In this document: positions 20,336 through 54,562 of the stretch, in pieces
How the letters are laid out: the number at the start of each line of letters is the position of its first letter
Position numbering within the stretch: the stretch's first letter is position 1
Origin: a phage
Sequence record: PZ402305.1
Reading direction: 5' to 3' (one strand)
Length of the DNA stretch: 64,000 nucleotides
Notes under the pieces: generated by a model
Database searches by the model: none
What the model was told of the DNA's origin: nothing
Seen by the model: only the letters and a program-made list of their open reading frames with translations
Position numbers and translations under genes: made by a program

Positions 20336-20359
20336 CACAACAGAAGAGAGATTATCACG

Positions 20360-20572: not shown

Positions 20573-20577
20573 AACGC

Positions 20578-20639: not shown

Positions 20640-20662
20640 AACAAAGAGAAGAGGAAAACATC

Positions 20663-20830: not shown

Positions 20831-20833
20831 TCG

Positions 20834-20880
20834 TTGACTTTTCGTTATAGCGCCTTATAATGGGCGCTATAGAGAAGAGA
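20834..20880 (+). promoter_or_regulatory. Promoter with -10 embedded in a palindrome
   Basis: TTGACT-N16-TATAAT inside inverted repeat ATAGCGCC/GGCGCTAT. Confidence 0.5.
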
Positions 20881-20908
20881 AACCAATCACCAGAAAGAGA
20901 GAAAGAAA

Positions 20909-21127
20909 ATGGCAATCCGTAAAATTAAAGTTGTTTGCATTGAATCAACTGGTGGCGCGTTTGTAGTTGGTCAGAAGTATAATGCGGTTTTAATGGGCGT
21001 GGATTGGAAGGTTAAAGGTCTTGACGGTTACGAATACGGCACTACTCGCGGCTTGCGTGGTCGAATCGGATACGTGAGCTTTGACAACAAAGAAAAATTT
21101 GTTTTCGATACTGTTATGAGTAAATAG
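20909..21127 (+). CDS. small hypothetical protein (72 aa)
   Basis: Track ORF. Confidence 0.6.
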   Translation: MAIRKIKVVCIESTGGAFVVGQKYNAVLMGVDWKVKGLDGYEYGTTRGLRGRIGYVSFDNKEKFVFDTVMSK

Positions 21128-21200
21128 CACGAATTGCTAAAAACTAATCTGCGAATTGCTGTAATATCAACTAATCGAAACACATAAAGAGAAAAACATC

Positions 21201-21422
21201 ATGATCACTTTCGCTATTGTCACCGTTGTCGCTGGTCAAGTTTACGTAAATGAGACATTTACTACAGAAGACAAAGCAGCAGGAGATATAACCGCCGTTT
21301 ACAACGAGTGCAAGGCAGTAGAAAGGATGTTAGCGCCTTGTATGCTAATGAGTGAACGCCAGGACGGGATAACAGTGTTTAGCAACATTGAAACAGGGTA
21401 CCAAATGGTAGTAACAAAATAA
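21201..21422 (+). CDS. small hypothetical protein (73 aa)
   Basis: Track ORF. Confidence 0.6.
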   Translation: MITFAIVTVVAGQVYVNETFTTEDKAAGDITAVYNECKAVERMLAPCMLMSERQDGITVFSNIETGYQMVVTK

Positions 21423-21426
21423 AACT

Positions 21427-21485
21427 TGACACAGATTTAATTTTCAGTAAACTGTTACACATAGGGCGGGAATAGTTCCCGCTAA
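21427..21485 (+). promoter_or_regulatory. Early-type promoter + 5' hairpin module
   Basis: TTGACA ... TAAACT; hairpin GCGGGAATAGTTCCCGC. Confidence 0.55.
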
Positions 21486-21500
21486 AAAGAGAGAAAGACC

Positions 21501-21854
21501 ATGAAAGCACAAAATGCAATTAAAGAGTACATCCTTGCCGCTATCGATTTTAATGATTATGGTATTACAACCGAAAAAGAGAAGATCGCGGAATTGATGC
21601 GCCGTTTTAATTCCGAGTACTGGTACCCTGATAATCAATCACGTTTTAATTATAGTATTGTTAAAGCACTTGCATCATGGTTACAAGGTTTGCCATCAGA
21701 CATTAATATCGCTTTCGAATATTGGGAAATTGATCGTTTGTTAACATCCTGGGGATACATTAAAGAGAATAGCAGCGATGATAAAATCCAACGAGAAAGG
21801 GAAAATTATTGGCTTTATATTGCAGGCGTGATCCTTGCTTGCTCTTATGAATGA
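21501..21854 (+). CDS. small hypothetical protein (117 aa)
   Basis: Track ORF. Confidence 0.6.
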   Translation: MKAQNAIKEYILAAIDFNDYGITTEKEKIAELMRRFNSEYWYPDNQSRFNYSIVKALASWLQGLPSDINIAFEYWEIDRLLTSWGYIKENSSDDKIQRERENYWLYIAGVILACSYE

Positions 21855-21860
21855 TAAACC

Positions 21861-21918
21861 TTGACAATTTTACAAAACAGCTTAAATTAATAATATAGCG
21901 GCAATGGTGCCGCTCATA
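21861..21918 (+). promoter_or_regulatory. Early-type promoter + 5' hairpin module
   Basis: TTGACA ... TAATAT; hairpin GCGGCAATGGTGCCGC. Confidence 0.55.
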
Positions 21919-21933
21919 TAAAGAGGAAACAAA

Positions 21934-22080
21934 ATGAATACATCTAATCGCGCAGAAAAAATTCAATCTCCCAAGATCCGCAAGGCCTGGAACGAGGAAG
22001 TGATCCGCAAAGGCGACAAGCGTAATAAAACAAAGCGCGGGAAGAGTGACAAATATAATTGGATGGATTTAGAGGATTAA
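21934..22080 (+). CDS. small basic protein (48 aa)
   Basis: Not in track; Lys/Arg-rich; followed by terminator; approximate. Confidence 0.45.
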   Translation: MNTSNRAEKIQSPKIRKAWNEEVIRKGDKRNKTKRGKSDKYNWMDLED

Positions 22081-22084
22081 CATA

Positions 22085-22115
22085 ACAAGGGCGCACCAAG
22101 CGCCCTTTCTTTTTA
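22085..22115 (+). terminator. Rho-independent terminator
   Basis: AAGGGCGCACCAAGCGCCCTTTCTTTTT; same hairpin recurs at 27172. Confidence 0.6.
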
Positions 22116-22135
22116 CATGTAGAGGATAAACAAAA

Positions 22136-22321
22136 ATGACTTTAAACGAGCTTAAAACAGCCTACAACGCAACGTTAAAAATAGCCGTGCGTTACCGTGA
22201 CGAATACGGTTTTATTGCGCAGGGCGTGATCCTGGGCTTTTCTGACGATGGTTTGATTTATGTTGATGCACATCACAACAAGGTTAAACCGGAAAACGTT
22301 ATCAGTATAAAATATCTTTAA
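22136..22321 (+). CDS. small hypothetical protein (61 aa)
   Basis: Track ORF. Confidence 0.55.
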   Translation: MTLNELKTAYNATLKIAVRYRDEYGFIAQGVILGFSDDGLIYVDAHHNKVKPENVISIKYL

Positions 22322-22327
22322 AAGTGG

Positions 22328-22390
22328 TTGACACCATAACCGGACCTGTTAAACTGTATTACATCAGGCGGGGGAATAGTTCCCCACCAT
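22328..22390 (+). promoter_or_regulatory. Early-type promoter + 5' hairpin module
   Basis: TTGACA ... TAAACT; hairpin GGCGGGGGAATAGTTCCCCACC. Confidence 0.55.
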
Positions 22391-22407
22391 ACAAAAAGGT
22401 AAATATT

Positions 22408-22614
22408 ATGATCACCGCAAAACAAGAAAAAATCATTATCGACGTTGCAGCCGTTGCCGCTATTGCTATTATTGGATCTTATTATGATACCCGTTTCCCG
22501 TCGGCTATGCATGAGGTCGCCGCCGTTGCATCAGTTGGCGTACTGTTTTACGTTGGTAAACGCTATTTATCACCAATGATTAACAAGCTGACACCGTGGA
22601 AAAATAAAGGTTGA
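22408..22614 (+). CDS. small membrane protein (68 aa)
   Basis: Start moved to ATG after promoter; two hydrophobic segments. Confidence 0.55.
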   Translation: MITAKQEKIIIDVAAVAAIAIIGSYYDTRFPSAMHEVAAVASVGVLFYVGKRYLSPMINKLTPWKNKG

Positions 22615-22685
22615 TCCTGTTTTATATTGTGTTATAGTTATCGTGTAGGGCGGCAATGGTGCCGCGCCCCTTTGAGGATGCAATC

Positions 22686-22970
22686 ATGAGTAAAGCTAAC
22701 ACCGTGCTAATGTTTTCCCTGATTAATGATCCCGCTTACTTGTCCAACATGACGCAGGAGGGTAACACATTAACGGCAACATTCACCAATAAGCTTGACC
22801 GAGTGATCATCATCTCACTGAAAACAGTTAGTAAAGGCTTTTACTCGTTAGCTTATCATTGGATCACTGATACCGATGAGACAAGCCAGGACTATAGCGC
22901 CCCTTTCCCTGAATCAATGGCACGGGAGATCATCGCCGCCGTTGTAAATGATGGTTTGTTTACTGCATAA
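22686..22970 (+). CDS. small hypothetical protein (94 aa)
   Basis: Start moved to ATG after GAGG; hairpin GGGCGGCAATGGTGCCGC in leader. Confidence 0.55.
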   Translation: MSKANTVLMFSLINDPAYLSNMTQEGNTLTATFTNKLDRVIIISLKTVSKGFYSLAYHWITDTDETSQDYSAPFPESMAREIIAAVVNDGLFTA

Positions 22971-22985
22971 AAATTTAGAAAAGGC

Positions 22986-23045
22986 TTGCAATAATTTTGA
23001 GATAGTGTATATTTAATTCATAGGGCGGCGGGAATAGTTCCCAAA
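22986..23045 (+). promoter_or_regulatory. Early-type promoter + 5' hairpin module
   Basis: TTGCAA ... TATATT; hairpin GGGAATAGTTCCC. Confidence 0.5.
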
Positions 23046-23065
23046 GCAAACGAGAGGATTACACG

Positions 23066-23185
23066 ATGAGCAAGTACACAGTAGAATACACGGTAGAGAA
23101 TCCGGCAGTATCCGAAGGTAAAAAGATGACATTTGCCATCAGTATAATCGCTTTCGTTGTCACTATCTTATCAATCATCTTATAA
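23066..23185 (+). CDS. small membrane peptide (39 aa)
   Basis: Not in track; hydrophobic C-terminal half; approximate. Confidence 0.4.
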   Translation: MSKYTVEYTVENPAVSEGKKMTFAISIIAFVVTILSIIL

Positions 23186-23195
23186 GGTGCACACC

Positions 23196-23357
23196 ATGAA
23201 AATAACAGACATTATCAAAGAGATCGCCCTTGCCGCTGGCGTTGAAGTCGAGGAAGTGATCGCGCTCAATCTTACAGAAAACGATCTGCGCAACTATGAA
23301 GCGGAAAGCGTGAAAGCAAGCGGCGCGGTCCTGGTATATGATCCGGCTAACAAGTAA
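23196..23357 (+). CDS. small hypothetical protein (53 aa)
   Basis: In-frame ATG within track ORF 23157..23357. Confidence 0.5.
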   Translation: MKITDIIKEIALAAGVEVEEVIALNLTENDLRNYEAESVKASGAVLVYDPANK

Positions 23358-23366
23358 GGGGATAAC

Positions 23367-23477
23367 ATGAATCCGAAAGATATGCAAGCATGGAAAGGGT
23401 ACGACGATCTAAGCGCCTTGCGCAATAAGTCAAGCCGTAACCTTAGACGGTTGGAAGCAAAGAAAAAGAAAAAATAG
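23367..23477 (+). CDS. small basic peptide (36 aa)
   Basis: Not in track; AAGGGGA upstream; C-terminal KKKKK; approximate. Confidence 0.35.
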   Translation: MNPKDMQAWKGYDDLSALRNKSSRNLRRLEAKKKKK

Positions 23478-23478
23478 T

Positions 23479-23535
23479 TTGACAAGTCCGCGTAGTCTGA
23501 TAATATGTATCTTGTAGGGCGGCAATGGTGCCGCT
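23479..23535 (+). promoter_or_regulatory. Early-type promoter + 5' hairpin module
   Basis: TTGACA-N17-TAATAT; TTGTAGGGCGGCAATGGTGCCGC. Confidence 0.55.
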
Positions 23536-23555
23536 CACAAGAAGAGAGAAAAATC

Positions 23556-23840
23556 ATGAAAATTACAAAAAGCCTAACTAATTATGCAGCACGTCGCGGA
23601 TTATGTTTAACCGTTGAAAACTTAGGGAAAGAAGACTTTTTGTGTTTTTGGGAGCTTGAAAATGATTGCGAGTGGATGTTTTCTTATTCTATCTGCGAAG
23701 ATCAAAACGGTTGTTTGTTAACCTGGCGCGGTAATATCTATTTACCGGAAGAAATCAAAGAGGAACTACCAGGCACGATCATGACTGAGAAACAGCTTAA
23801 GGAAGTGATCAATTTTGTAGGGCAAAACATTAAAAAATAA
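23556..23840 (+). CDS. small hypothetical protein (94 aa)
   Basis: Start moved to ATG after promoter/hairpin. Confidence 0.6.
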   Translation: MKITKSLTNYAARRGLCLTVENLGKEDFLCFWELENDCEWMFSYSICEDQNGCLLTWRGNIYLPEEIKEELPGTIMTEKQLKEVINFVGQNIKK

Positions 23841-23841
23841 T

Positions 23842-23905
23842 TTGACAGTAGGCAAACAACGTAGTAAAGTTTATTACATAGAGCGGCGGAATGGTCCACC
23901 GCTCA
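23842..23905 (+). promoter_or_regulatory. Early-type promoter + 5' hairpin module
   Basis: TTGACA ... TAAAGT; hairpin GCGGCGGAATGGTCCACCGCTC. Confidence 0.55.
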
Positions 23906-23925
23906 CAACAGAAGAGAAACAAATC

Positions 23926-24096
23926 ATGATCCCGACTATGTTTTATGTATCGCGCAAAGGTCACAATATTTTTTGGTCTGAAGATTTAAATGAAGCTATG
24001 ACGTTTGCCCGTAATCGTGTTGCTATCGGTGGCGTTAACATCACCGTAACCGATGAAAATGGCATTGAATACTATAACGGCGACGATGAAGAATAA
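23926..24096 (+). CDS. small hypothetical protein (56 aa)
   Basis: Start moved to ATG after promoter/hairpin. Confidence 0.55.
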   Translation: MIPTMFYVSRKGHNIFWSEDLNEAMTFARNRVAIGGVNITVTDENGIEYYNGDDEE

Positions 24097-24174
24097 TTAA
24101 TGAGGCGGGGGGAGTATTCCCCGCCGTCAATATGGCGGGGCAATAAGGCAACGCCCATTAATGAGGGTAAAATC

Positions 24175-24279
24175 ATGTTAGAGAAAATTTTCACGGTTGC
24201 AGTGGTTGGCCTGGCGTTATCGGTTGGAGTGGTTGCAACTATGGCTAACATGATCCTATCTTCCCACGGTATCGGTTAA
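24175..24279 (+). CDS. small membrane peptide (34 aa)
   Basis: Not in track; preceded by two GC hairpins; approximate. Confidence 0.35.
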   Translation: MLEKIFTVAVVGLALSVGVVATMANMILSSHGIG

Positions 24280-24289
24280 GGTGAAACAA

Positions 24290-24505
24290 ATGATCACGAA
24301 CAAAACAGGCAAAACGGAATTTTTACGCGGCTTACAAGTTGGTAAGCCTGAGATCTGGCATTGCACGAAGTCCGCGCATAATGAAATGAAAGATTTCACC
24401 GCTACTTTACAACGTGTTAAAATATCTATTACACAGAAAAAAGCCTTGTTAGTAGTAGAAAACGAGATCCCACAAACTATTATTATTGTCGAGCGTACAG
24501 CATGA
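24290..24505 (+). CDS. small hypothetical protein (71 aa)
   Basis: AGGTGA then ATG at 24290. Confidence 0.55.
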   Translation: MITNKTGKTEFLRGLQVGKPEIWHCTKSAHNEMKDFTATLQRVKISITQKKALLVVENEIPQTIIIVERTA

Positions 24506-24888
24506 AAACAGAAATCATTATTGAAATCATCAACGGCTATAAAGAAGCTTTTATTTTTGCTGAATCAGCAAGGGATCATGAAGGTAATTTTATTGATAAC
24601 TTAGACGATTATGATTTTTCTCCTAGCGCGGACGAACGGATCGCCCAGGATGTAACAGCCTTTATTAATGCTAATCTTGCCGCTATCTCTGAGGCAATGA
24701 GCGACGGCGCAACAGCCAACCAGATCGGGAATGATTTACATTTTACCCGTAACAGTCACGGCGTAGGCTTTTGGGATCGCCCTGAAATATACACCACTAA
24801 CACGGCGAACCGCCTAACCAATGCAGCTAAGTTTATGCCGAACGTGTCGGCTTACATTGGTGAAGATAATTTGATTTATATTGAATAA
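24502..24888 (+). CDS. small hypothetical protein (128 aa)
   Basis: Track ORF, ATGA overlap. Confidence 0.6.
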   Translation: MKTEIIIEIINGYKEAFIFAESARDHEGNFIDNLDDYDFSPSADERIAQDVTAFINANLAAISEAMSDGATANQIGNDLHFTRNSHGVGFWDRPEIYTTNTANRLTNAAKFMPNVSAYIGEDNLIYIE

Positions 24889-24894
24889 AAAGTA

Positions 24895-24950
24895 TTGACA
24901 CAGATCGCCAGTGTGCTAATATTTACCACGTAGGGCGGCAATGGTGCCGC
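24895..24950 (+). promoter_or_regulatory. Early-type promoter + 5' hairpin module
   Basis: TTGACA ... TAATAT; CACGTAGGGCGGCAATGGTGCCGC. Confidence 0.55.
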
Positions 24951-24971
24951 TCCCCGAAAAAGGTAAACATT

Positions 24972-25163
24972 ATGGAAACCATCTCCTACCTGGAATCGAA
25001 TAACATGTTTTTTGCGCCCGTTGATGAAATCATCGAAGCATTAAACAACGAGGAAGGGATCAAAGGTTTATCTTATAGCCAACTTTTAGGAATGGTTGCA
25101 GCAAATGAAGAGCTTGCTTACTATGTTGAAAATTTTGATGAAGCTGTAATCTTTACAAAATAA
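24972..25163 (+). CDS. small hypothetical protein (63 aa)
   Basis: Track ORF. Confidence 0.6.
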   Translation: METISYLESNNMFFAPVDEIIEALNNEEGIKGLSYSQLLGMVAANEELAYYVENFDEAVIFTK

Positions 25164-25166
25164 TCC

Positions 25167-25225
25167 TTGATCTAATCTCTTAGATAACTTATATTTAATG
25201 CGTAGGGCGGCAATGGTGCCGCCGA
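25167..25225 (+). promoter_or_regulatory. Early-type promoter + 5' hairpin module
   Basis: TTGATC ... TATATT; GCGTAGGGCGGCAATGGTGCCGCC. Confidence 0.5.
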
Positions 25226-25241
25226 TAATGAGGAAAGTAAA

Positions 25242-25541
25242 ATGGAAACTATCGCTATTGTTACCGTAGAAAAACTGGTTGTTGGTGATGTATTCGCGTT
25301 AATGGTGCCTAACAGCAGCAAACTGGGCGCTTATGAAGTAATGGATCATAAAAATGAATCATTTGGCGACGGTTGCACAATGGCGGTAAAATCTTTAAAG
25401 GATGGAATCATCCGCCAGGCTAACTGGCACAAAGGGAATCAAGTCGGTTTAATATCAGCTAATTTCTTGCCAGAAGAGCAAACGTTAGACCAACTATCAG
25501 GCGGTAAGACGTTAGCCGAGCTACTGGAAACAGCGATCTAA
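25242..25541 (+). CDS. small hypothetical protein (99 aa)
   Basis: Track ORF. Confidence 0.6.
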   Translation: METIAIVTVEKLVVGDVFALMVPNSSKLGAYEVMDHKNESFGDGCTMAVKSLKDGIIRQANWHKGNQVGLISANFLPEEQTLDQLSGGKTLAELLETAI

Positions 25542-25585
25542 TCAACAAAGGGGCGGCAACGCCCCACATCAGAAAGGAAAAGATT

Positions 25586-25822
25586 ATGAGTATTGCAACA
25601 GTATTAAACGCCGTTAAAACCGCTGAATCATCCGGCTTGCATGTTGAGCTTATAGATCAACCAGGTGGCGATCTCCTTGTCCAGGTTTACCCGCCGAAAG
25701 TAGGGGATGATCATTATTGGTGCTATTCTGATACGTTCGAACAAGTAGACACGAAAGCGATCACGGCTTTTATTTTAAAAGCTATTGAAGAAAATAACTT
25801 TCATTATAACATCAATCAATAA
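25586..25822 (+). CDS. small hypothetical protein (78 aa)
   Basis: Track ORF; leader hairpin GGGGCGGCAACGCCCCAC. Confidence 0.6.
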   Translation: MSIATVLNAVKTAESSGLHVELIDQPGGDLLVQVYPPKVGDDHYWCYSDTFEQVDTKAITAFILKAIEENNFHYNINQ

Positions 25823-25879
25823 ACTTTAAGCAGGGGGCGGTAACGCCCTATTAAACGCAATAGGAAGAGGATAGAAAGC

Positions 25880-26170
25880 ATGAAAAAGATGATCGCAGTA
25901 GTTGCCCTGGTTGTTGGTATTAACGCGCCTGTAATGGCTAATGATTTGCCTGAATCCATCGCGTTAACCGATATCAACGCGGTAAACCGGATCGGCGTTA
26001 ATTATCGCCTATGCCTTGCCGCTAAAACTTTCCAGGACGGCACGACAGAATACCACGGATTCGAGGGTGTCCGGTGCGGTGAGCTTGCACGCGACCTTAA
26101 GGAAGATCCAGACCTTGAGGCCATACCGATGACCGTAAACGGTAAAGCTTACGTAAACCGCCAACAATGA
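25880..26170 (+). CDS. small secreted protein with signal peptide (96 aa)
   Basis: MKKMIAVVALVVGINAPVMAND; leader hairpin GGGGGCGGTAACGCCC. Confidence 0.6.
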   Translation: MKKMIAVVALVVGINAPVMANDLPESIALTDINAVNRIGVNYRLCLAAKTFQDGTTEYHGFEGVRCGELARDLKEDPDLEAIPMTVNGKAYVNRQQ

Positions 26171-26181
26171 GAAAGGTAATC

Positions 26182-26409
26182 ATGACAATGGGGATCATAG
26201 TAGCAACGCTGGCGCTGATCCCCTTCCTGGTTGAATATGTGCTGATTAGTGTTGTCCTGGTAGTCAGTGACTTATTGGAAACGGTTGGCACCTGGGAGCA
26301 GGGGAAGATAATCACCGGACGACCCCGCTATATATTGATAGCTAACATCTATCAAACAACAAAACATCAAAGAGATAAACTATCAAATCTTTACAATCCT
26401 ACCTATTGA
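26182..26409 (+). CDS. small membrane protein (75 aa)
   Basis: Start moved to ATG after AAAGG; hydrophobic N-terminal half. Confidence 0.55.
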   Translation: MTMGIIVATLALIPFLVEYVLISVVLVVSDLLETVGTWEQGKIITGRPRYILIANIYQTTKHQRDKLSNLYNPTY

Positions 26410-26465
26410 CACCGGATCACGCTTACATTATCATTTATCACGTAGGGCGGGAATGTTTCCCGCCT
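26406..26465 (+). promoter_or_regulatory. Early-type promoter + 5' hairpin module
   Basis: TTGACA ... CATTAT; CACGTAGGGCGGGAATGTTTCCCGCC. Confidence 0.55.
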
Positions 26466-26482
26466 GATTTAGGAGTCATATC

Positions 26483-26716
26483 ATGATCGAACAAATTAAA
26501 AGCACTAAACCAAATGTTAACGGTAATGTTTCTCACTTTATCGGGGATAATGAAAGAGGTACACCGTACGCCGCCGTAACCGTTCAACCGAACGGGGATT
26601 ATTGGTTTACCGTGTACGGATCTTACTCTTTTGGACGTTCGGCACATGATAAGATCTTGCAAGTGGTTAAGCCTACTGGGAAGAATATCACAGCAGAAAA
26701 ATTTTATAAAAAATAA
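26483..26716 (+). CDS. small hypothetical protein (77 aa)
   Basis: Track ORF. Confidence 0.6.
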   Translation: MIEQIKSTKPNVNGNVSHFIGDNERGTPYAAVTVQPNGDYWFTVYGSYSFGRSAHDKILQVVKPTGKNITAEKFYKK

Positions 26717-26717
26717 C

Positions 26718-26775
26718 TTGCTTTATAGCTCCTGTTAACTTATAGTTATTGCGTAGGGCGAGCAATACAGCAAGC
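26718..26775 (+). promoter_or_regulatory. Early-type promoter + 5' hairpin module
   Basis: TTGCTT ... TATAGT; GCGTAGGGCGAGCAATACAGCAAGCCC. Confidence 0.5.
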
Positions 26776-26794
26776 CCACAAAGAGGAAAAGAAG

Positions 26795-27163
26795 ATGAGC
26801 AAATCAGCAATTAAAGCACTTGAAAAAGCACAAGAAGTGATCGCAACGTCAACCACTGGCGCAAAGGTTAATCTCGTTGGTTATCTGACAGATGAAACTA
26901 TCCGTAAAAATTGGCGTAATGCTGATTTACTGGCTTGCTTATTGATTAATAGTGTCGCTAATGCTTTCCAGTGTGAAACAGCCGAGAGCCTGGAGGAAAA
27001 CTTGTTTGATAATATGGATCAAGCCATTGAAACCTATATACAATCAAACATGGATAGCTGGAACAGTAAAACATGGCCCGACAATTTACGCGATACAACT
27101 GATCAACTGATCCGCCTTGCCTTGATGGTTGAACGCGATAACGTTCACAACCGCACAAAGTAA
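26795..27163 (+). CDS. small hypothetical protein (122 aa), last gene of array
   Basis: Track ORF followed by terminator. Confidence 0.6.
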   Translation: MSKSAIKALEKAQEVIATSTTGAKVNLVGYLTDETIRKNWRNADLLACLLINSVANAFQCETAESLEENLFDNMDQAIETYIQSNMDSWNSKTWPDNLRDTTDQLIRLALMVERDNVHNRTK

Positions 27164-27171
27164 GATTATAC

Positions 27172-27200
27172 AAGGGGCGCACCAAGCGCCCTTTCTTTTT
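27172..27200 (+). terminator. Rho-independent terminator ending the small-gene array
   Basis: GGGGCGCACCAAGCGCCCTTTCTTTTTG; same hairpin as at 22086. Confidence 0.6.
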
Positions 27201-28273
27201 GCCCGAATAATGTTGATAGATTCCGCCTATGGAAAACCGACACAGAACAAAACTGAATAAATAGCGGTATCGAGCTAATCAACCATTAAACGAATAACCA
27301 TACCTCCCAGGGTAACAGGCTGTTAGAGAGCCATTTAGAGCGGTTAAAATCGATCAACAACCAACAAAAAACCATCAAAAACACCCTTTTACCTCCTTTC
27401 TAGTGCAATGATAACCATTATCATCTATCCATGTTTATCTATGCAATATAAGTGCATAACTATAATGTTGATAATAGTTCGCAACAACTAACTAACCAAC
27501 AACCTAAAACAATAAGCAAACTAATCATAATCAAAGGAATAATAGCAAGATGATTGATAACGACAAACAATCAAACCATGATGAATACTAAGCAAGATAA
27601 CGATAACACGACAAAACAACCAACTAACGAACAATAACAAACGAAACCATTAAAATAATAACTATTAGCAAAATAGTGCCTGAATGAAATCATTACAAAA
27701 CGAATCATTCACAGGATCATCATTAGCACGCTATGCCGGACACATAGCGAGCTAATAATAAGCCAACTACACCCCAACAATCATAACCATCGGTGATGGT
27801 TATTTCTTGTTACTGCGTAGCTTGCAATAATTGCAAGCGTAATACGCTTACACTTATTGCGCTGGCTTATTATTAGCATTATATGTAATTACCAAGATCA
27901 TAACATTAGCGCAATAACAATAATCATTGTGGTAATTACAAGATGAAATAATCGCTATCGCTCAAAGATCATTAGCAAGATGAATAATTGCACGTAGCAA
28001 CATGAGCGAATAGCGACAGGTTGCATAGTGTGCACATAGATGTACACGTAGTGTATAAACATACAGGAAAATAAAGGCTAATCTTTTGGGGGCGAATACT
28101 ATCGCGTAGCGATATGTTGAGCACTAAGAGAAGAGATAAACCTTAATCATGGGGGCGTAAATATCCGCAGGATTGCCAACGGCGATCCGGTAGGATGTTG
28201 AGCATCTTCTCTTAAACGTAAATAAAATCAGAAAATTCTTGATTTATTTTAGTTTTTATGTTAATAAACGTTT

Positions 28274-28301
28274 AAATAATAATCATTCTCATATGAATAA
28301 T
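28274..28301. promoter_or_regulatory. Fur-box-like palindrome 3
   Basis: AATAATAATCATTCTCATATGAATAAT shares ATAATCATTCTCAT core with 16084 site. Confidence 0.4.
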
Positions 28302-28450
28302 AGTCTGCTTGTCATGAGCGGGATCAGTTGACAATGTTCCGTCATATGATGAAGTTGCCAAACCATTGATAAATAAGTGTTTGTGTGATTTATAATCAAG
28401 TGGCCCACCTTGTCGCTATGTTGGCATGAGCCTTGCATAAGTCATTGAAT

Positions 28451-28480
28451 ACGAATGATAATTATTCTCATTCGCATGAT
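28451..28480. promoter_or_regulatory. Fur-box-like palindrome 4
   Basis: ACGAATGATAATTATTCTCATTCGCATGAT, near-perfect inverted repeat. Confidence 0.4.
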
Positions 28481-28813
28481 ATTTGAGAATTGTCGCTGCG
28501 TGGACCTGACGGCCCGAAAATTCGCGTTAAGCACTTCTTACGTATGCGCCATGATTTTTGCCATATGATATTGATTCTATTAGATATTCTTGCCATGATT
28601 GCCATGAAACAGGGTGTCCCGAAATAATCTCTCCCCGTAGATATTTTGGGTTACTTTTTATACAAGAGTGGGGTGTCAAAAATAATCGGTATATATGGGA
28701 TAATTGATAGGAATCCCCTATGATAATTCGATTGTAATTCCCTGAGATTGATCGTATGATGTTGGTGATTGATGATTGCCATGAAAGATGGCTAACAATG
28801 AGAGGAGATTATC

Positions 28814-29158
28814 ATGCAAGAGAGTAAAAATGTTCCGTTGAGTAGTTTACGTCTAATGAAGTTTTACAAAGCTTGGCTTGCTGGTGAGGTAGAAGGTCAC
28901 ACAACGAGTGGTTTGTGCATATGTTTGATTAAGTATGTAGAGGGAACATATCCTGATGAACTGTTACCTCGTCTACAACAGGAGATGAAATCACAGTTTA
29001 TTGGTGCAGGACTGGATTACAATTTCCCGTTTAATGAAGGTGGTTATGAGGAATACACCTTCGAACATAAAAAACATATTTGCCATAAAAACAAACATCG
29101 TATACAATGGGTGCTAGATAGAATTCAAGATTACGAAGGAGAGAAAAATGACAAATAG
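28814..29158 (+). CDS. Paralog family member 1 (FYxxWL / GLC / PFN / WVKDR family)
   Basis: FYKAWLAG, TSGLCICL, GLDYNFPFNE, RIQWVLDRI; GAGGAG RBS. Confidence 0.65.
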   Translation: MQESKNVPLSSLRLMKFYKAWLAGEVEGHTTSGLCICLIKYVEGTYPDELLPRLQQEMKSQFIGAGLDYNFPFNEGGYEEYTFEHKKHICHKNKHRIQWVLDRIQDYEGEKNDK

Positions 29159-29516
29159 TATTCCGTTGAGCAGTGCAACATTGCTTCGCTTCTATAAAGC
29201 ATGGATTGCCAACTATCCTGCAATGAATCGCACAACGAGTGGCTTATGTGGTTGTCTGGTAGATTATGTAAATGATTTTGTTGGTGAGACAACCAGAGAA
29301 GAAGATAGAAGATGGCGGGATAGTTTGTTGGACCGTTTGAAATATGAAATGAGGAAACAATTTACATGTGCAGGGCTGGACTACAATCTTCCGTTCAATA
29401 CAGATTGCATGGATTACCTTTCAGAGTGTATAAACTTGGCGTGTCATACCAACACGTTACGTCTTCAATGGGTGAAAGACAGAATTGAAGATGCAAATAA
29501 TGCTTGCATTGAATAA
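29148..29516 (+). CDS. Paralog family member 2
   Basis: FYKAWIAN, TSGLCGCL, GLDYNLPFN, RLQWVKDRI. Confidence 0.65.
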   Translation: MTNSIPLSSATLLRFYKAWIANYPAMNRTTSGLCGCLVDYVNDFVGETTREEDRRWRDSLLDRLKYEMRKQFTCAGLDYNLPFNTDCMDYLSECINLACHTNTLRLQWVKDRIEDANNACIE

Positions 29517-32486: not shown

Positions 32487-32663
32487 ATGGCTACTTTTCA
32501 ACAATTGAAAGATGTTTCACGTTTAGTAAGAAAAATCCGAGAAGCAGACGCTGCTGTGCGGAATGCACTAACGCCAGCAGAGCGTGAAGATCTTGAAGAG
32601 GAGGTGAAAACAGCCGAGAATGCTTTTGCTGTGTATCTTTCAACCCTGTACACAGGAGGTTAA
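32487..32663 (+). CDS. small hypothetical protein (58 aa)
   Basis: Not in track; ACAGGAGA upstream; stop abuts next ATG. Confidence 0.45.
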   Translation: MATFQQLKDVSRLVRKIREADAAVRNALTPAEREDLEEEVKTAENAFAVYLSTLYTGG

Positions 32664-32978
32664 ATGTCAGAAGAACTTAAAGAATTTTATCAAGCATATC
32701 ATAACTGGCTGTTAGCTGGTGCTCCAGATAATAATCCTTTCTGGCATGATAAAGGATTATGTAGTTGCCTCTACCTTTGGACTGGAGGTTATGATGATCT
32801 AAATTATGAAATGCAAATGCAATTCCGTGAGGCAGGATTGTCTGAAGAATACCCGTTTGATGACGGAGACTGGTTTAAATATGATTTTGCACAAAGAAAC
32901 GGGCTATTGCATTTGAATGCTGCCCGTATAAAATGGGTAAAAGACCATGCTACACAGGAGGATGTGCAATGCCAATAG
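32664..32978 (+). CDS. Paralog family member 3
   Basis: FYQAYHNWLLAGAP, KGLCSCL, AGLSEEYPFD, RIKWVKDH. Confidence 0.65.
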   Translation: MSEELKEFYQAYHNWLLAGAPDNNPFWHDKGLCSCLYLWTGGYDDLNYEMQMQFREAGLSEEYPFDDGDWFKYDFAQRNGLLHLNAARIKWVKDHATQEDVQCQ

Positions 32979-35976: not shown

Positions 35977-36249
35977 ATGAATAAAGATCGGTTTCTTTCT
36001 TTAGTCGCGGAAGCTCCTTTTGATGTTCTTGGAGTGAGATTATGGAAAGACAGAAACTATGGGTTAGATGTTCAAACATACTCTCTTTGGTTGGTTGGGG
36101 AGCACAGCTTAGATGAAAGCTTGTGCATGGGTAGGGATTCTCGTTCCCTCTGTTTAAAGTTCAGAAGCTTAGAACGCGCAAACAAAGAGCAAGAAAAACT
36201 AACGAGGTGGCTAAATGAAAACAAGCGCAAGGTTGATGGAGTTTTATAA
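35977..36249 (+). CDS. hypothetical protein (90 aa)
   Basis: Track ORF. Confidence 0.6.
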   Translation: MNKDRFLSLVAEAPFDVLGVRLWKDRNYGLDVQTYSLWLVGEHSLDESLCMGRDSRSLCLKFRSLERANKEQEKLTRWLNENKRKVDGVL

Positions 36250-36541
36250 AATTTATCTAGCATGGATTGATGTTGGTGCTCCTGATGGTAAACCTTTTCG
36301 GCGGGATTGCGGTTTGTGTGCCAACTTATTCGACTATGTGCACAGAGGCAATTACAACCCCATTATAACAACCTTATCAGATGAAATGCACGCGCAGTTC
36401 CACTATAAAGGGTTGAGTCAAGAACTCCCTTTCAATGAGAACTATGATGCATATGTTTTAGAGTCAGATGCAGATGCCTGTCACCTGAACGTGGACAGGA
36501 TTAATTGGGTGAAAGATCGTATTGCAGAGGAGAATGAATAG
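36215..36541 (+). CDS. Paralog family member 4
   Basis: FYKIYLAWIDVGAP, CGLCANL, KGLSQELPFNE, RINWVKDRI; GAGGTGG RBS; start may instead be ATG at 36236. Confidence 0.6.
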   Translation: MKTSARLMEFYKIYLAWIDVGAPDGKPFRRDCGLCANLFDYVHRGNYNPIITTLSDEMHAQFHYKGLSQELPFNENYDAYVLESDADACHLNVDRINWVKDRIAEENE

Positions 36542-36990: not shown

Positions 36991-37020
36991 TTGACAGAAG
37001 GATCTGTCTTTGTCATAATC
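36991..37020 (+). promoter_or_regulatory. sigma70-like promoter
   Basis: TTGACA-N17-CATAAT. Confidence 0.5.
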
Positions 37021-37048
37021 ATCTCATCGAAACAAAGAGGAGAAAATC

Positions 37049-37462
37049 ATGAAAAAGTTTATTTGCACCCGTTCCACTAACAGTGATATCCTTGTAGGTA
37101 AGGTTATCAAAGGAGAACTCTTCCATGCAAACGGTAAGAAATATATTTTGCTGAAAGATTCTTTCAACGGGGAATATCCGCGCTGCACTTTCTTCAATTA
37201 CAACACTCCATTTGCTTTAGAAGGAGATGCTTGGGACTGGGCTGAACTCAATCCTTGTTGTGAGGAAGAAGAATCTATGTTCTTGGGTTTAAACGTTTAC
37301 CGTGTAGATTACACCATGTGCGGAGCGGAACATTCTGTTCGCGTAGAAGCCGAATCCAAACTACAAGCACCTTTCAAGGCGGGATTGACTTTGGGTCATT
37401 GTTTGGCAAACATTGAAGATGTTGTGATCCAAAGGGTTGTTTTAGAGAAAGAGGCTATTTGA
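37049..37462 (+). CDS. hypothetical protein (137 aa)
   Basis: Track ORF. Confidence 0.6.
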   Translation: MKKFICTRSTNSDILVGKVIKGELFHANGKKYILLKDSFNGEYPRCTFFNYNTPFALEGDAWDWAELNPCCEEEESMFLGLNVYRVDYTMCGAEHSVRVEAESKLQAPFKAGLTLGHCLANIEDVVIQRVVLEKEAI

Positions 37463-37514
37463 GAGAAGACGGCACAATATTTAAATATAAAGATTAACCA
37501 CAAAGGAGATAGAT

Positions 37515-37814
37515 ATGCAAGTTGAAGACCTGATCAAAATTTTGAATGAAGCCAAAGAGAAAGGTGCTATCAAAGACTGGAAACGTGAAACAAGTGAAGA
37601 TCTATCTCACTGTTGCCGAGAATTTTACATCGAAGGTATTGCTGACGATCATTATATTATCGAATGGTATATCAACTTAATGACTCTTAAGCACGGTTCG
37701 TTTGAGGTTTGGTTTGATGACATTGATGTAAATGGTTTTCATCCTGGCTATAAAATCGCTATGCAGTTATCTTATCGTAGAGAAGTTGTAGCACATTTAG
37801 GTTTACATAACTAA
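37515..37814 (+). CDS. hypothetical protein (99 aa)
   Basis: Track ORF. Confidence 0.6.
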   Translation: MQVEDLIKILNEAKEKGAIKDWKRETSEDLSHCCREFYIEGIADDHYIIEWYINLMTLKHGSFEVWFDDIDVNGFHPGYKIAMQLSYRREVVAHLGLHN

Positions 37815-37824
37815 GGAGAAAAGA

Positions 37825-38148
37825 ATGCAAGCAGTTGTTAACGAAGCTATTATGAACTTATCCTTCTTGTTAGCTGGTTTAGGAGGTGTTCTCATAGGTT
37901 TGGCTCTTATCTGGTGTATTCGTCGATTAATCGGGTACCGACAAAAAGGTGTTTCATGTTTTGTATCTTACAATTTTACAACTGCTTACAGCAATGAAGT
38001 TGGATCTGGCAATGCTCAAGCATTTTTACCAACATATCCTCCTACGGTGGAAGATATTCGAAACTTGGAAGTAGAACTTATGGGACTAAGTGATAACTAT
38101 ACATCTCTAGTTATTCAAAATATTTTTCGACTAAAACAGGAGGCGTGA
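37825..38148 (+). CDS. membrane protein (107 aa)
   Basis: Hydrophobic N-terminal helix. Confidence 0.6.
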   Translation: MQAVVNEAIMNLSFLLAGLGGVLIGLALIWCIRRLIGYRQKGVSCFVSYNFTTAYSNEVGSGNAQAFLPTYPPTVEDIRNLEVELMGLSDNYTSLVIQNIFRLKQEA

Positions 38149-38361
38149 ATGAAGGTACATTACCCTCATCCATTTGATCCTAAAAACAAAGCCGTAATTC
38201 TTCGTCAGTGGCAACGGGTTTGTCGTACTAAATGTCCAATCAATAGCCCACACAATGTAGACAAGGACTATCTTGGGACATTTGTTGAATACACTTACAT
38301 AGACAAAAACAAGCGTAAACAACATGTCGAGGAATACTGCTTAAGAGTAGAATGGCTGTAA
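38149..38361 (+). CDS. hypothetical protein (70 aa)
   Basis: Track ORF. Confidence 0.6.
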   Translation: MKVHYPHPFDPKNKAVILRQWQRVCRTKCPINSPHNVDKDYLGTFVEYTYIDKNKRKQHVEEYCLRVEWL

Positions 38362-38374
38362 ATAATAAATACCT

Positions 38375-38405
38375 TGACAAGTGTTTATTCGTTTTGTAAA
38401 GTGAG
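38375..38405 (+). promoter_or_regulatory. sigma70-like promoter of recombinase gene
   Basis: TTGACA-N17-TAAAGT; approximate. Confidence 0.45.
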
Positions 38406-38431
38406 AATACAGCAATGGTTTAGGAGTGGTT

Positions 38432-39103
38432 ATGAAAAAGTTTGTTGTTTACAGTCGTCTTTCTAAACAGAAAAAAGGTGAGGCACAATATGGTATGGAG
38501 AGCCAAGAGAATGATATCCGTTACTTCTTAGACTCTGTGCCTGATGCGGAAGTTATTGGTCAATTTTCTGAATACTATTCGGGTAAGGGCGATTGGAAGC
38601 AACGTAAGGAACTGGTTAAAGCGGTTGAAATGTGTAAAGCTACCGGAGCAACTTTATTGGTAGCTAAAGTTGACCGCTTGGGTCGTAATAACGCCTCCGT
38701 AGCAACTCTTCTAGAAATGATTGATGTTAAGATAGCCATCATGCCAGACGCAGATAAAATGGTTATACAGCTTCTGTCTGTTCTGGCTGAACAAGAAGTT
38801 AGAGGTATTGCTGATCGTATTAAAAAGGGTCTTGCTGTAGCAAAAAGCAAAGGTGTTTTATTAGGCAGTGCCAATCCTAAAACTGCCGCTGCACGTAGAA
38901 AAGGAAAAATGGAATACAACTCTGTTAAAGCAGACGCTTTTGCAGAGACATTCCGTGAACGCTTGGAGATCCTTAGAGATTTAAATACACCTTACAAAAC
39001 TATTGCTGAAAAATTCAATAGTAAGAAAATAGCAACAGCACGTGGTGGTAAATGGGATGCTAAAACTGTTTCTCGTTTGTGTGCCAGACTGAACATTAAA
39101 TAG
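38432..39103 (+). CDS. Serine recombinase (resolvase/invertase family)
   Basis: VYSRLSK, TLLVAKVDRLGRNNASVATLLEMI, LLSVLAEQEVRGIADRIKKGLAVAKSKG align with Hin/Gin catalytic domain; C-terminal GGKWDAKTVSRL; start ATG after AGGAG. Confidence 0.75.
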   Translation: MKKFVVYSRLSKQKKGEAQYGMESQENDIRYFLDSVPDAEVIGQFSEYYSGKGDWKQRKELVKAVEMCKATGATLLVAKVDRLGRNNASVATLLEMIDVKIAIMPDADKMVIQLLSVLAEQEVRGIADRIKKGLAVAKSKGVLLGSANPKTAAARRKGKMEYNSVKADAFAETFRERLEILRDLNTPYKTIAEKFNSKKIATARGGKWDAKTVSRLCARLNIK

Positions 39104-39111
39104 GAGAGGAT

Positions 39112-39534
39112 ATGAAACAAGAAAATGAACCTGTAGATCACTTAATCATGCTGTCAGCCCTTTTTGCCGGATGGGACGTATTTTTTGAAAATTTGTTCAA
39201 TTCTGCTACAGATGGTTCCGATTTTATGCGCCAGTTTAAACGACGAACTGTTGAGGACTATGCTTTCTATTCAGGTCGGATTGAAAAAGGTTACGAAGAT
39301 ACAAATACAACACTCACCATTAAAGTTTTAGATGTGATGTTTAGTGTTATAGATGCTATCGACGAAAGTCTTCCGATCCTAGATAATTGTAATACGAAAG
39401 TCTATGTTTACAAAATAGCTCGTGCTTATGTGTCTGCAAACAGTTGTCTTCTTTCCACCCAGATTGCCGTGAACAATCTTGCCAACTTGTTTGATGAAGG
39501 AGAAACTTTTTATGACAATCGATTTGAAGTGTAA
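39112..39534 (+). CDS. hypothetical protein (140 aa)
   Basis: Track ORF. Confidence 0.6.
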   Translation: MKQENEPVDHLIMLSALFAGWDVFFENLFNSATDGSDFMRQFKRRTVEDYAFYSGRIEKGYEDTNTTLTIKVLDVMFSVIDAIDESLPILDNCNTKVYVYKIARAYVSANSCLLSTQIAVNNLANLFDEGETFYDNRFEV

Positions 39535-39877
39535 GAGGATTCTTTTAGATTTCTATAATAATTGGTTAGAACACCTCCGGCTCTTTCCAAGAGAAAGTGG
39601 TTACGCTGATGTTGGCTTATGCCGAGGTCTACGTATGTATATAAGTGATGAATTTCGGGCCGAGCATTCTTTAGCATATTCTGTTTATGGTATGCAATTA
39701 GCCAGTTTTGAAAACGCTGGCTTAGATACAACTTTCCCATTTAACACAGCAAAATCTTTTGAGCAAGAGTGTAAGGAAAAACGTTGCATGTTTAATGAAA
39801 AACGTGTACAGTGGGTTAAGGATCGAGTTAAACAACTGGAACAAGAGTTGGATTTCTTCTATGATGAGGCAGAATAA
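39512..39877 (+). CDS. Paralog family member 5
   Basis: FYNNWLEH, VGLCRGL, AGLDTTFPFN, RVQWVKDRV; GAAGGAGAAA RBS. Confidence 0.6.
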   Translation: MTIDLKCKRILLDFYNNWLEHLRLFPRESGYADVGLCRGLRMYISDEFRAEHSLAYSVYGMQLASFENAGLDTTFPFNTAKSFEQECKEKRCMFNEKRVQWVKDRVKQLEQELDFFYDEAE

Positions 39878-40149
39878 TGGATAGACAAACCTTAAAAACA
39901 ATGGCAGATGCCACTAATTCCCCGTACTTTGAAAAAGTAAGTAAATTGGTAGCTCAAGCCGCAGAGGAAGGATATTATAACATAAACATCCACAACCCAA
40001 GTCTTATACTAGAAATGCCAAGTGATAAGAAGATACAAGAGAGTATCTGTGAAGGTATTGTTAGTTACTGGCGCGAGCGTGGGTGTGGTGCAAACATGGC
40101 TTTAGACAGTGCAAACATTGTAAGATATATAAATATTTCTTGGGGGTGA
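39877..40149 (+). CDS. hypothetical protein (90 aa)
   Basis: Track ORF. Confidence 0.6.
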   Translation: MDRQTLKTMADATNSPYFEKVSKLVAQAAEEGYYNINIHNPSLILEMPSDKKIQESICEGIVSYWRERGCGANMALDSANIVRYINISWG

Positions 40150-40153
40150 TTTT

Positions 40154-40765
40154 ATGATTCAATGCACTCATATCCAAATTACTTGGAGAGATGAACTTTA
40201 CCATTTGGGACAATTTACTGTAGGGGAAACATACCCTGTCATTAAACATAATCCTAACATCGCAAACTTTGATAGGATGGTTCTTGTTGAGGACGATCTG
40301 GGTCAAACTTATTCTTTAGATCTAAAATATCCGTTTTCTTACGGCTACGATTGGATCGTTACTTTTGAAGACGTGGAGGAAAATAAAACAATGAACGAAA
40401 AAAATTCTTGGTATTATCGTTGTGAACTGCCGCCAGTAGGTGAAAAGGTTATCTTTGTTCCTGATTTGGAAAGATATTCTTGGGACAGTTCTTATTCTGT
40501 TCCTAAAGAAGGCACCGAAGTTGAAGTTATTGCACATCGCACGACTTCGCATGGTAACGATGTAGCAGTTGTTTTCTGGGATGATGAAGGCGCTGCTTGT
40601 GCAGGTGGCTTTGTTGCAGGTAACTTTGAACCCCTGCCAGATCCTTTGAAGGAGGCAATTTTAGGCGTAGCTTCTTTTGGACTCTCTTACACGTCTGCAC
40701 AGGAGATCGTAGAAGGTATTTTAAACGGTACTGTTCCAAACGAAATTTTCAAACAGATTAAATAA
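40154..40765 (+). CDS. hypothetical protein (203 aa)
   Basis: Track ORF. Confidence 0.6.
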   Translation: MIQCTHIQITWRDELYHLGQFTVGETYPVIKHNPNIANFDRMVLVEDDLGQTYSLDLKYPFSYGYDWIVTFEDVEENKTMNEKNSWYYRCELPPVGEKVIFVPDLERYSWDSSYSVPKEGTEVEVIAHRTTSHGNDVAVVFWDDEGAACAGGFVAGNFEPLPDPLKEAILGVASFGLSYTSAQEIVEGILNGTVPNEIFKQIK

Positions 40766-40800
40766 CAGTTGCACCCCGTTCTGCGGGGTGTTATTGTATA
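40766..40800 (+). terminator. Rho-independent terminator
   Basis: GCACCCCGTTCTGCGGGGTGTTATTG. Confidence 0.5.
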
Positions 40801-40816
40801 TGTAAAGGAGGCGCTA

Positions 40817-41155
40817 ATGTATTACACTGAAGACTACATATTGTATAACTTTTTTAAAGGTTGGTTGAAATGGGCGGAACAAGCTCCTGTCGGAGATTGT
40901 GTTTTTCCTTGGGATTCTCGTCAAGGCTTGTGTCGTTGTTTGGAAGATTGGCTTATAACCACAAACTACAATTCAGAAACTAAGAAATCTACATCAAACA
41001 GATTAAAAATGTTGTTTGAAGAAGATGGTTTAGATCCAATTTATCCTTTCGGTGAGGAAAGTTTCCACAATGGTCTTTTCCTTGGCACTCAACATTATGA
41101 TAAAGATCGTGTAGATTGGGTAAAAGAAAAGGTAGCACAGTATGAATGGGGTTAA
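40817..41155 (+). CDS. Paralog family member 6
   Basis: FFKGWLKWAEQAP, QGLCRCL, DGLDPIYPFGE, RVDWVKEKV; AAAGGAGG RBS. Confidence 0.6.
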   Translation: MYYTEDYILYNFFKGWLKWAEQAPVGDCVFPWDSRQGLCRCLEDWLITTNYNSETKKSTSNRLKMLFEEDGLDPIYPFGEESFHNGLFLGTQHYDKDRVDWVKEKVAQYEWG

Positions 41156-54517: not shown

Positions 54518-54562
54518 AATCCCTCCTTAAAATACTCCCTCCGAAAAGGGAGTATAAGTATA

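Follow-up and report, generated by a model that had tools for sequence, protein, structure and literature searches.

The recombinase gene and its promoter

This analysis concerns a serine recombinase gene in a 64,000-nucleotide stretch of phage DNA (record PZ402305.1; the whole stretch is referred to here as the window), which a sequence-only reading had flagged as an enzyme gene with its own promoter inside a lytic-style gene block. The open reading frame (ORF) spans positions 38426..39103 on the + strand and its likely start is the ATG at 38432, giving a coding sequence at 38432..39103 (+) of 223 codons plus a stop codon. A Shine-Dalgarno sequence, AGGAG, lies at 38422..38426 (+), 5 nt before this ATG, and the same start is used by the orthologues and by the GenBank coding sequence of phage UP17. 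Positions 37000-41000 are 99% identical to the virulent Phapecoctavirus phages vB_EcoM_UP17, ASO2A and tuntematon, among about 60 other records, and by sequence the window can be assigned to Phapecoctavirus, as a phAPEC8-like member of the Stephanstirmvirinae and a virulent Escherichia coli myovirus of about 150 kb. The recombinase gene stands within a run of small + strand early ORFs, which, together with the identity to virulent phages, agrees with the description of the block as lytic in style.

The gene also appears to have the promoter that had been proposed for it. A sigma70-type -35 hexamer, TTGACA, at 38374..38379 (+) is followed after 17 nt by a -10 hexamer, TAAAGT, at 38397..38402 (+); as a unit (38374-38402) they match 10 of the 12 consensus positions and occupy one of the block's few intergenic gaps, directly upstream of the gene. 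A promoter consensus scan alone operates at chance level (37 sites against 35 expected in shuffles), and the call is convincing not because of the scan but because orthologues in other lineages carry equivalents. These are TTGACA-18-TAAAAT in phiWec181, TTGACT-17-(TG)CATACT in phi92, TTGACA-17-(TG)CATACT in Klebsiella phage phi1_175008 and TTGATC-17-TATATT in Citrobacter phage Tr1. A promoter thus stands directly upstream of the orthologue in all four other lineages, two of which have the gene at another genome position, making five lineages with the window.

A 26-bp imperfect palindrome, AATAAATACCTTGACAAGTGTTTATT, at 38364..38389 (without assigned strand) overlaps the -35 hexamer. It was considered as a binding site and set aside, as it occurs in a single copy in the window and in one whole genome and has lost its right arm in phiWec181. 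Its RNA fold (z=-0.66) is no improvement over shuffled sequences.

Catalytic domain and active site

The flagged ORF is real and contains the motifs quoted for it, YSRLS at residues 7-11, VDRLGRN at 80-86, GGKW at 205-208 and TVSRL at 212-216. The protein matches the Pfam family Resolvase (PF00239) over residues 5-142 with 66 bits against a cut-off of 23.3 (E=5.2e-18), as well as PHROG 125, 'DNA invertase' (E=2.6e-32). In the PDB the closest sequences are those of Tn3 and gamma-delta resolvase, with Sin and Gin also matched. The catalytic domain and E-helix take up residues 1-139 (38432..38848, +), with Ser11 as the nucleophile and R9, R58, R82 and R85 as the active-site arginines. An AlphaFold2 model with a mean predicted local distance difference test score (pLDDT) of 88.6 has the catalytic fold, a long E-helix at 109-139 and four further helices, and structural matches of the catalytic domain include Sin, gamma-delta resolvase and TP901-1. 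An alignment of 29 homologues, some with as little as about 30% identity, has Y7, R9, S11, Q25, R58, D81, R82, R85 and E120 unchanged throughout, and neither the catalytic serine nor any active-site arginine is lost on alignment. The full resolvase/invertase catalytic domain with its E-helix, as first read, is therefore upheld by the PF00239 match, the invariant residues and the modelled helix. Judged by domain, active site and E-helix together, the protein is by sequence a member of the serine recombinase superfamily, and it is apparently an active, catalytically competent enzyme.

Resolvase-like serine recombinases also repress their own promoters, and the position of AATAAATACCTTGACAAGTGTTTATT over the -35 hexamer could be taken to indicate that recombination activity has been lost here and that the protein now serves as a sequence-specific DNA-binding regulator. 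The nucleophile and active-site arginines are invariant across the family and the palindrome is not conserved, both of which make such a regulator highly improbable.

A truncated large serine recombinase domain

The C-terminal GGKW...TVSRL segment had also been put forward as DNA-binding. The segment is present, and its affiliation has to be corrected. Residues 149-223 (38876..39100, +) form a four-helix domain with the motif IAxxxNxxxxxTxRGGKWxxxTVSRL, the helices being placed by the AlphaFold2 model at 149-172, 175-183, 188-197 and 210-219. This region gives no match to HTH_7 (PF02796) at E<=0.1. There is a weak match to PF07508, 'Recombinase' (E=0.003, under the curated cut-off), in which residues 187-216 align with profile positions 19-48 of 102. 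With a family profile, the region aligns with SPbeta SprA/YokA (residues 135-244) and with the large serine recombinase (LSR) integrase chain 9iu2, and a Foldseek search against the PDB places Bxb1 integrase (9iu2) first, followed by the catalytic domains of Sin and TP901-1. The C-terminal part is therefore the start of the 'Recombinase' domain of LSRs, in truncated form, and not the HTH_7 domain of Hin, Gin and the resolvases, an assignment that is new here. No zinc ribbon is matched by Pfam in the protein. We describe it as a short LSR-like serine recombinase, in which the catalytic domain and E-helix are followed by only the initial helices of the recombinase domain, with neither zinc ribbon nor coiled coil. 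In a codon-level profile conservation is far lower in the DNA-binding domain than in the catalytic domain.

Among known systems, the protein resembles gamma-delta/Tn3 resolvase, Sin, Gin and Hin in its length of about 200 amino acids, in the order of catalytic domain, E-helix and C-terminal DNA-binding domain, and in the Y-x-R-x-S and D-R-x-x-R motifs; it differs from them in lacking HTH_7, and its gene has neither a res-like array nor hix/gix-like repeats. Unlike the case of Hin, Gin, Cin and Pin, there are no inverted repeats of about 26 bp bounding an adjacent segment and no invertible tail-fibre segment, and a single orientation is found in the records. Unlike the genes of Tn3/gamma-delta resolvases, the gene is accompanied by no upstream res site and no transposase, its neighbours being small phage ORFs. 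With the LSRs (Bxb1, phiC31, TP901-1 and SPbeta SprA) the protein shares alignable C-terminal helices and the motif IAxxLNxxGxxTxRGxxW, whereas it ends about 75 residues into the domain, has 223 amino acids rather than about 450-600 and shows no sign of integration. In IS607-type transposases a MerR-like domain is N-terminal and the catalytic domain C-terminal, in contrast to the N-terminal catalytic domain found here. The protein thus does not have the defining features of Hin/Gin invertases, Tn3-type resolvases, large serine integrases or IS607 transposases.

The gene itself is already known, being annotated in public records and functionally uncharacterised. It is gp053 'DNA invertase' in phi92, 'resolvase' in ESCO13, 'serine recombinase' in UP17 and ORF101 in SKA64, and the identical protein also appears as 'recombinase family protein', 'hypothetical protein' and, in several records, 'methionine ABC transporter ATP-binding protein'. 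No published experiments on this gene were found in the literature. For SKA64 ORF101 it has been speculated, without data, that concatemers are kept as single genomes (PMC10282059). ESCO5 and ESCO37 have been said to encode no recombinase (PMC10269720); contrary to this, both carry the gene, at 99.6-100% identity.

Conservation and distribution

Identical copies of the protein turn up in 63 phage records of GenBank and 884 blocks of a metagenome index. Twelve Phapecoctavirus copies have 35 variable nucleotide sites and zero amino-acid changes, with at most 16 synonymous and no non-synonymous differences in any pair (synonymous divergence, dS, up to 0.118; non-synonymous divergence, dN, 0). Ten of the twelve were fetched by exact protein match, which introduces a bias; the two fetched by DNA similarity have the same pattern. 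Against phiWec181, with 75% protein identity, dN/dS is 0.16. These values show strong purifying selection on the recombinase.

By tblastn the gene is in 163 phage records, including essentially all examined records of Phapecoctavirus, Justusliebigvirus and related Klebsiella and Citrobacter phages. On these matches it is present in nearly all examined genomes of the Stephanstirmvirinae, which comprise the phAPEC8-like and phi92-like virulent myoviruses. Orthologues are 57% identical in Justusliebigvirus phi92, 55% in related Klebsiella phages and 67% in Citrobacter phage Tr1; identity drops to 46-51% for relatives in large virulent-type contigs, to 35-39% for those in large Vibrio phages and to 30% for those in a few ICP1 isolates. 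The ICP1-type homologue is found in just 8 of 85 records. In Vibrio phage ICP1 2017_DRC_82 (L007) the 30% homologue, at 4001-4756, lies in a block standing in place of the genes that the reference has between gp30 and gp41; the locus is accordingly a replaced accessory block, and the idea of a clean insertion there was dropped.

The wider family is large, with at least 542 relatives in IMG/VR contigs. Its distant members include one at the end of a Pseudomonas prophage, one beside a large serine integrase at a prophage end, and one (P0082) in an island that resembles a satellite and also carries a primase gene and a packaging gene; many relatives adjoin terminase genes or contig ends in viral contigs of 30-50 kb. 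The family overall is tied to mobile or temperate elements, and the Stephanstirmvirinae clade, residing in virulent phages, is the exception. Across one genome per species from 185,579 bacterial and archaeal species there is no relative above 36% identity, and the clade is therefore phage-only.

Gene position in the two genera

In phi92, VEcB and Klebsiella phage phi1_175008 the gene lies on the opposite strand, between gp054 and gp052 and beside a DNA methyltransferase gene, a linkage that is also seen in relatives of 51% and 39% identity. The window equivalent of the gp054/gp052 slot (54518-54562) is without a recombinase gene and holds only a terminator-like hairpin, ATACTCCCTTTTCGGAGGGAGTAT, followed by a T run, on the - strand; this is the exact site of the phi92-type recombinase gene and its promoter. 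In the window the recombinase gene is preceded by a DUF7202 gene, and in VEcB the 47%-identical homologue of this DUF7202 gene has no recombinase gene after it. Phapecoctavirus and Justusliebigvirus are collinear apart from the recombinase position and one small inversion. The differing places of the gene in otherwise collinear genera therefore indicate that it moved once and kept a host-type promoter, and such retention may be read as selection for early expression by host RNA polymerase. No flanking repeats or target duplications were found at either the filled or the empty sites. DUF7202 is the only family matched in a Pfam scan of the neighbours in the window and PADLOC, which covers defence and anti-defence systems, gave zero matches in the gene context; the adjacent genes give no functional clue to the recombinase.

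A change of place of this kind could also be expected of a mobile or relic cassette, made up of promoter and gene, that came from an integrative element or a temperate ancestor and has little or no role in lytic growth. The difference in position and orientation between genera with collinear flanking genes would suit a cassette, as would its patchy occurrence outside the subfamily, including the 8 of 85 ICP1-type records with their replaced accessory block, and the location of many relatives near contig ends or terminase genes in 30-50-kb viral contigs and of others at prophage ends. Set against this, the gene is carried by nearly every genome of the subfamily and is very strongly constrained by purifying selection, all its catalytic residues and its context inside each genus are invariant, and there are no flanking repeats or target duplications. 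We therefore regard a cassette of little function as unlikely.

Search for a recombination site

There are no site-like inverted or direct repeats flanking the gene, and a repeat search of the whole window returned promoter, hairpin and terminator families together with pairs at chance level; imperfect sites of 26-30 bp with many mismatches would escape such repeat tests. The computed search for inverted repeats around the gene thus agrees with the earlier judgement by eye that no convincing pair flanks it. The 70-bp gap upstream contains the promoter and one non-conserved palindrome and no res-like array. The surroundings of the gene are invariant in 24 metagenomic contigs and 63 GenBank records, and the inverted form of the gene segment was seen in none of either set. 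At 37000-41000, 7600-12300 and 27640-27990 no orientation variants were found in any of the Phapecoctavirus records listed (more than 60 genomes), a comparison of assembled sequences in which rearrangements at low frequency would escape notice.

Several candidate sites were evaluated and rejected. An inverted-repeat pair at 37959-37996 and 40095-40132 (28/38 nt) brackets the gene and is one of two in the window at a spacing of 0.7-4 kb; its arms lie inside two ORFs, it is absent from phiWec181, Tr1 and L021, and the enclosed segment is never inverted. A 31-nt stretch inside the gene, 97% identical to VEcB, was considered as an enhancer-like element, yet the codon-level profile has no outlier there. 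Breakpoints of insertions and deletions between genomes fall at ribosome-binding sites, start codons and promoter hairpins, with no site-like motif in common.

The small inversion between the genera involves a 4-gene segment at about 8954-10760 (75092-76352 in the Justusliebigvirus VEcB; 2933-4088 in L110; also in L111), which spans a divergent early promoter. Taking Phapecoctavirus as the reference, the segment is reversed in phi92, VEcB and BME3, and Justusliebigvirus W22 has the Phapecoctavirus-like orientation; in BME3 the inversion joins the first gene of the segment to an outside gene as a fusion. The segment has 86.8% identity against 95-97% in its flanks and lies 28-36 kb from the recombinase gene. 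No terminal inverted repeats on it exceed a shuffled null. As a switch operated by the recombinase it was rejected, being without terminal repeats, more diverged than its flanks and fixed in orientation in all Phapecoctavirus records listed; in our view it reflects an ancient rearrangement or the exchange of a module. The ORF at 9591-10082 within this region belongs to an insertion of about 520 bp (9585-10106) that is present in the window phage and a few relatives. The insertion is absent from most Phapecoctavirus records, hence a query coverage of 89% there.

These results bear on the suggestion that the protein is a DNA invertase in the sense of Gin, Cin or Hin, which would flip tail-fibre genes or a promoter and so switch host range or expression. 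The name 'DNA invertase' in PHROG 125 and several GenBank records speaks for this, as do the inversion of the segment at about 8954-10760 between phi92-type phages and Phapecoctavirus or W22, and the pair at 37959-37996/40095-40132, whose spacing class is rare in the window. The lack of HTH_7 in the protein, the location of the bracketing repeat inside two ORFs and its absence from phiWec181, Tr1 and L021, the distance, divergence and missing terminal repeats of the 4-gene segment, the single orientation at three segments in the Phapecoctavirus records listed, and the collinearity of the two genera elsewhere make an invertase very unlikely.

Integration into the host chromosome, as in lysogeny or as an occasional event, is hardly credible. 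Small serine recombinases can serve as integrases, for example in Ralstonia phage phiRSM, and distant relatives of the protein do lie at prophage ends. Against this, a DNA search of 5,426 complete E. coli genomes with the gene region gave no match, and there is no close homologue in representative bacterial genomes. These phages have moreover been called strictly virulent (PMC10282059, PMC10269720). Neither inversion of the tail-fibre kind nor lysogenic integration is likely, because there are no site-like repeats, orientation variants, E. coli prophage copies or close bacterial homologues. Of the three roles originally listed for such an enzyme, inversion thus finds neither repeats nor variants, integration neither an E. 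coli copy (0 of 5,426) nor a close relative among the 185,579 species, and the third, a resolution-type reaction, is a candidate role.

Proposed role

Our preferred reading, which we put forward tentatively, is that the enzyme acts early and in trans on the phage's own DNA, in a reaction of the resolution or deletion type. Host RNA polymerase would transcribe the gene from its own sigma70-type promoter and the enzyme would be made at the start of infection. If it behaves as the family does, the C-terminal helical domain would let dimers bind a dyad-symmetric site of about 30 bp, two bound dimers would synapse into a tetramer, and Ser11 would cut both strands with a 2-nt stagger through 5'-phosphoserine links, after which half of the tetramer would rotate and the ends would be rejoined. 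The site or sites, one or a few, would lie away from the gene and be acted on in trans, with which the invariant, repeat-free surroundings of the gene are consistent. As an example of such a role, the enzyme could circularise the incoming genome through short terminal repeats, or separate joined genome copies, as Cre does for P1. The likeness to Cre/loxP of P1, that of a phage recombinase working on its own genome in cyclisation or resolution rather than in lysogenic integration, is a functional analogy only, for a role that is hypothetical here; Cre belongs to the tyrosine recombinases and its site is known, and P1 is a temperate phage. The whole basis of this reading is timing, conservation and the exclusion of other roles, and our confidence in it is low.

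Terminal repeats do exist in these phages, BME3 being reported to have a direct one of 342 bp (PMC12210895). It maps to about 28.3-28.6 kb of the window, which places it roughly 10 kb upstream of the gene with respect to early transcription.

Several points weigh against action on the phage's own DNA. No recombination target site was identified in any of the scans. A scan for palindromes with 12-bp arms in one Phapecoctavirus and one Justusliebigvirus genome found zero shared site-like candidates, the reference for the whole-genome scan (OQ031492) containing runs of N; what the two genomes had in common was one palindrome within the coding sequence of a structural gene, together with Fur-box-like motifs, terminators and promoter hairpins. 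The only palindrome adjoining the gene, AATAAATACCTTGACAAGTGTTTATT, is not conserved. Position and timing are all that suggest a part for the terminal repeat, and we know of no need for a site-specific recombinase in well-studied phages with short direct terminal repeats (DTRs) such as T7. The fast-evolving DNA-binding domain would equally fit a target that varies between lineages, such as host or satellite DNA.

It may accordingly be asked whether the target is foreign DNA, be it that of the host chromosome, of a prophage or phage satellite already in the cell, or of another phage infecting at the same time. Such DNA would be rearranged or broken in the course of host take-over or of a conflict with the phage's own parasites. 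Early host-type promoters retained in all lineages, the failure of scans of the phage genome to yield a site and a DNA-binding domain that evolves much faster than the catalytic domain would all be compatible with this, as would the distant member P0082 in its satellite-like island with primase and packaging gene. Phages of both genera are also reported to have Odn-like nucleases directed against satellites of E. coli, among which are some that rely on a serine recombinase (PMC10055350). On the other side, the absence of any relative above 36% identity in the 185,579 genomes means that there is no sign of a DNA-binding module in common with an Enterobacterial element, and DNA homology in the 5,426 E. 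coli genomes is zero. To our knowledge a phage site-specific recombinase has no precedent as a weapon. We consider a foreign target rather doubtful, and less probable than action on the phage genome.

Whichever DNA is acted on, a phage-only clade of truncated LSR-like proteins, long retained in large, strictly virulent myoviruses and always standing on a host-type early promoter, could perform a task in the lytic cycle that is new for site-specific recombinases, a proposal that we think is rather unlikely to be correct. Candidate tasks might be the circularising or processing of short-DTR genomes on entry, and the rearrangement or breakage of host or satellite DNA as a weapon.

Other features of the window

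Two paralogous small early proteins flank the recombinase gene. They belong to a family with a C-terminal (R)(V/I)xWVK(D/E)(R/K) motif, members of which lie at 28815-29151, 29148-29516, about 32600-32970, 36215-36541, 39512-39877 and 40817-41155; at least three copies are found in Justusliebigvirus VEcB too, and the family has zero Pfam matches. Three copies of one perfect terminator hairpin, AACCCGCTTCGGCGGGTTTT(TT), lie in the window (13416-13435, 45270-45291 and 49996-50017), and VEcB has the hairpin as well. Rfam and tRNA scans of the window were empty.

The region 16700-26800 contains at least nine repeated cassettes, each placed before a small ORF and composed of a sigma70-type promoter (TTGACA-N17-TAAGAT or TAAACT) followed immediately by a GC-rich hairpin, for example GGGCGGCAATGGTGCCGCTC. 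The hairpin stems have paired changes between copies and between genera, and an RNA 5' stem-loop is therefore favoured over a protein-binding site. The same region has the greatest variation in gene content among Phapecoctavirus genomes.

Palindromes with a near match to the E. coli Fur-box consensus (AATGATAATnATTCTCATT) are found at 16021-16113, 27407-27425, 28275-28293 and 28448-28470. With at most 4 mismatches there are seven matches, against 0-3 in 20 shuffles, and they are clustered; the clusters recur syntenically in Justusliebigvirus VEcB (12 matches). One edge of the BME3 terminal repeat and base 1 of OQ031492 coincide with a Fur-box-like palindrome. They may mark early promoters that respond to iron, or sites connected with the ends of the genome, and they are perhaps of more interest than the recombinase.

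Between two early gene blocks lies a stretch of 1.65 kb without genes (27165-28814). It corresponds to the region of the BME3 342-bp direct terminal repeat and to the starts and ends of many GenBank records. Strand bias is strong at 27200-27800, with an AT skew up to +0.5 and a GC skew of about -0.3, and the cumulative GC-skew minimum is at about 27.9 kb. Within this stretch, at 27719-27890, there is a conserved non-coding cluster of palindromes, including TTAGCACGCTATG-CCGGACA-CATAGCGAGCTAA, whose arms have compensatory changes in VEcB, and a perfect 15-bp inverted repeat, GCTAATAATAAGCCA/TGGCTTATTATTAGC, with its copies 97 nt apart. The block is 72-83% conserved across the Stephanstirmvirinae, including Klebsiella phages, and has no Rfam match and no orientation variants. 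The 15-bp repeats had been considered as the ends of an inverton at 27742-27886, a candidate that was given up as no orientation variants were found. The block might serve as an origin or as a signal for packaging, or it might encode a non-coding RNA.

Implications

The result is of use chiefly for screening genomes in phage therapy. Pipelines used there read matches to 'recombinase' or 'integrase' as signs of lysogeny, and the gene described here is near-universal in two widely used coliphage genera. An orphan recombinase without a trace of integration helps such lysogeny flags to be interpreted correctly. A compact recombinase for engineering might also result. For phage biology, the conservation of an early site-specific recombinase in strictly virulent phages means that discovery of its site would be a modest but real gain.

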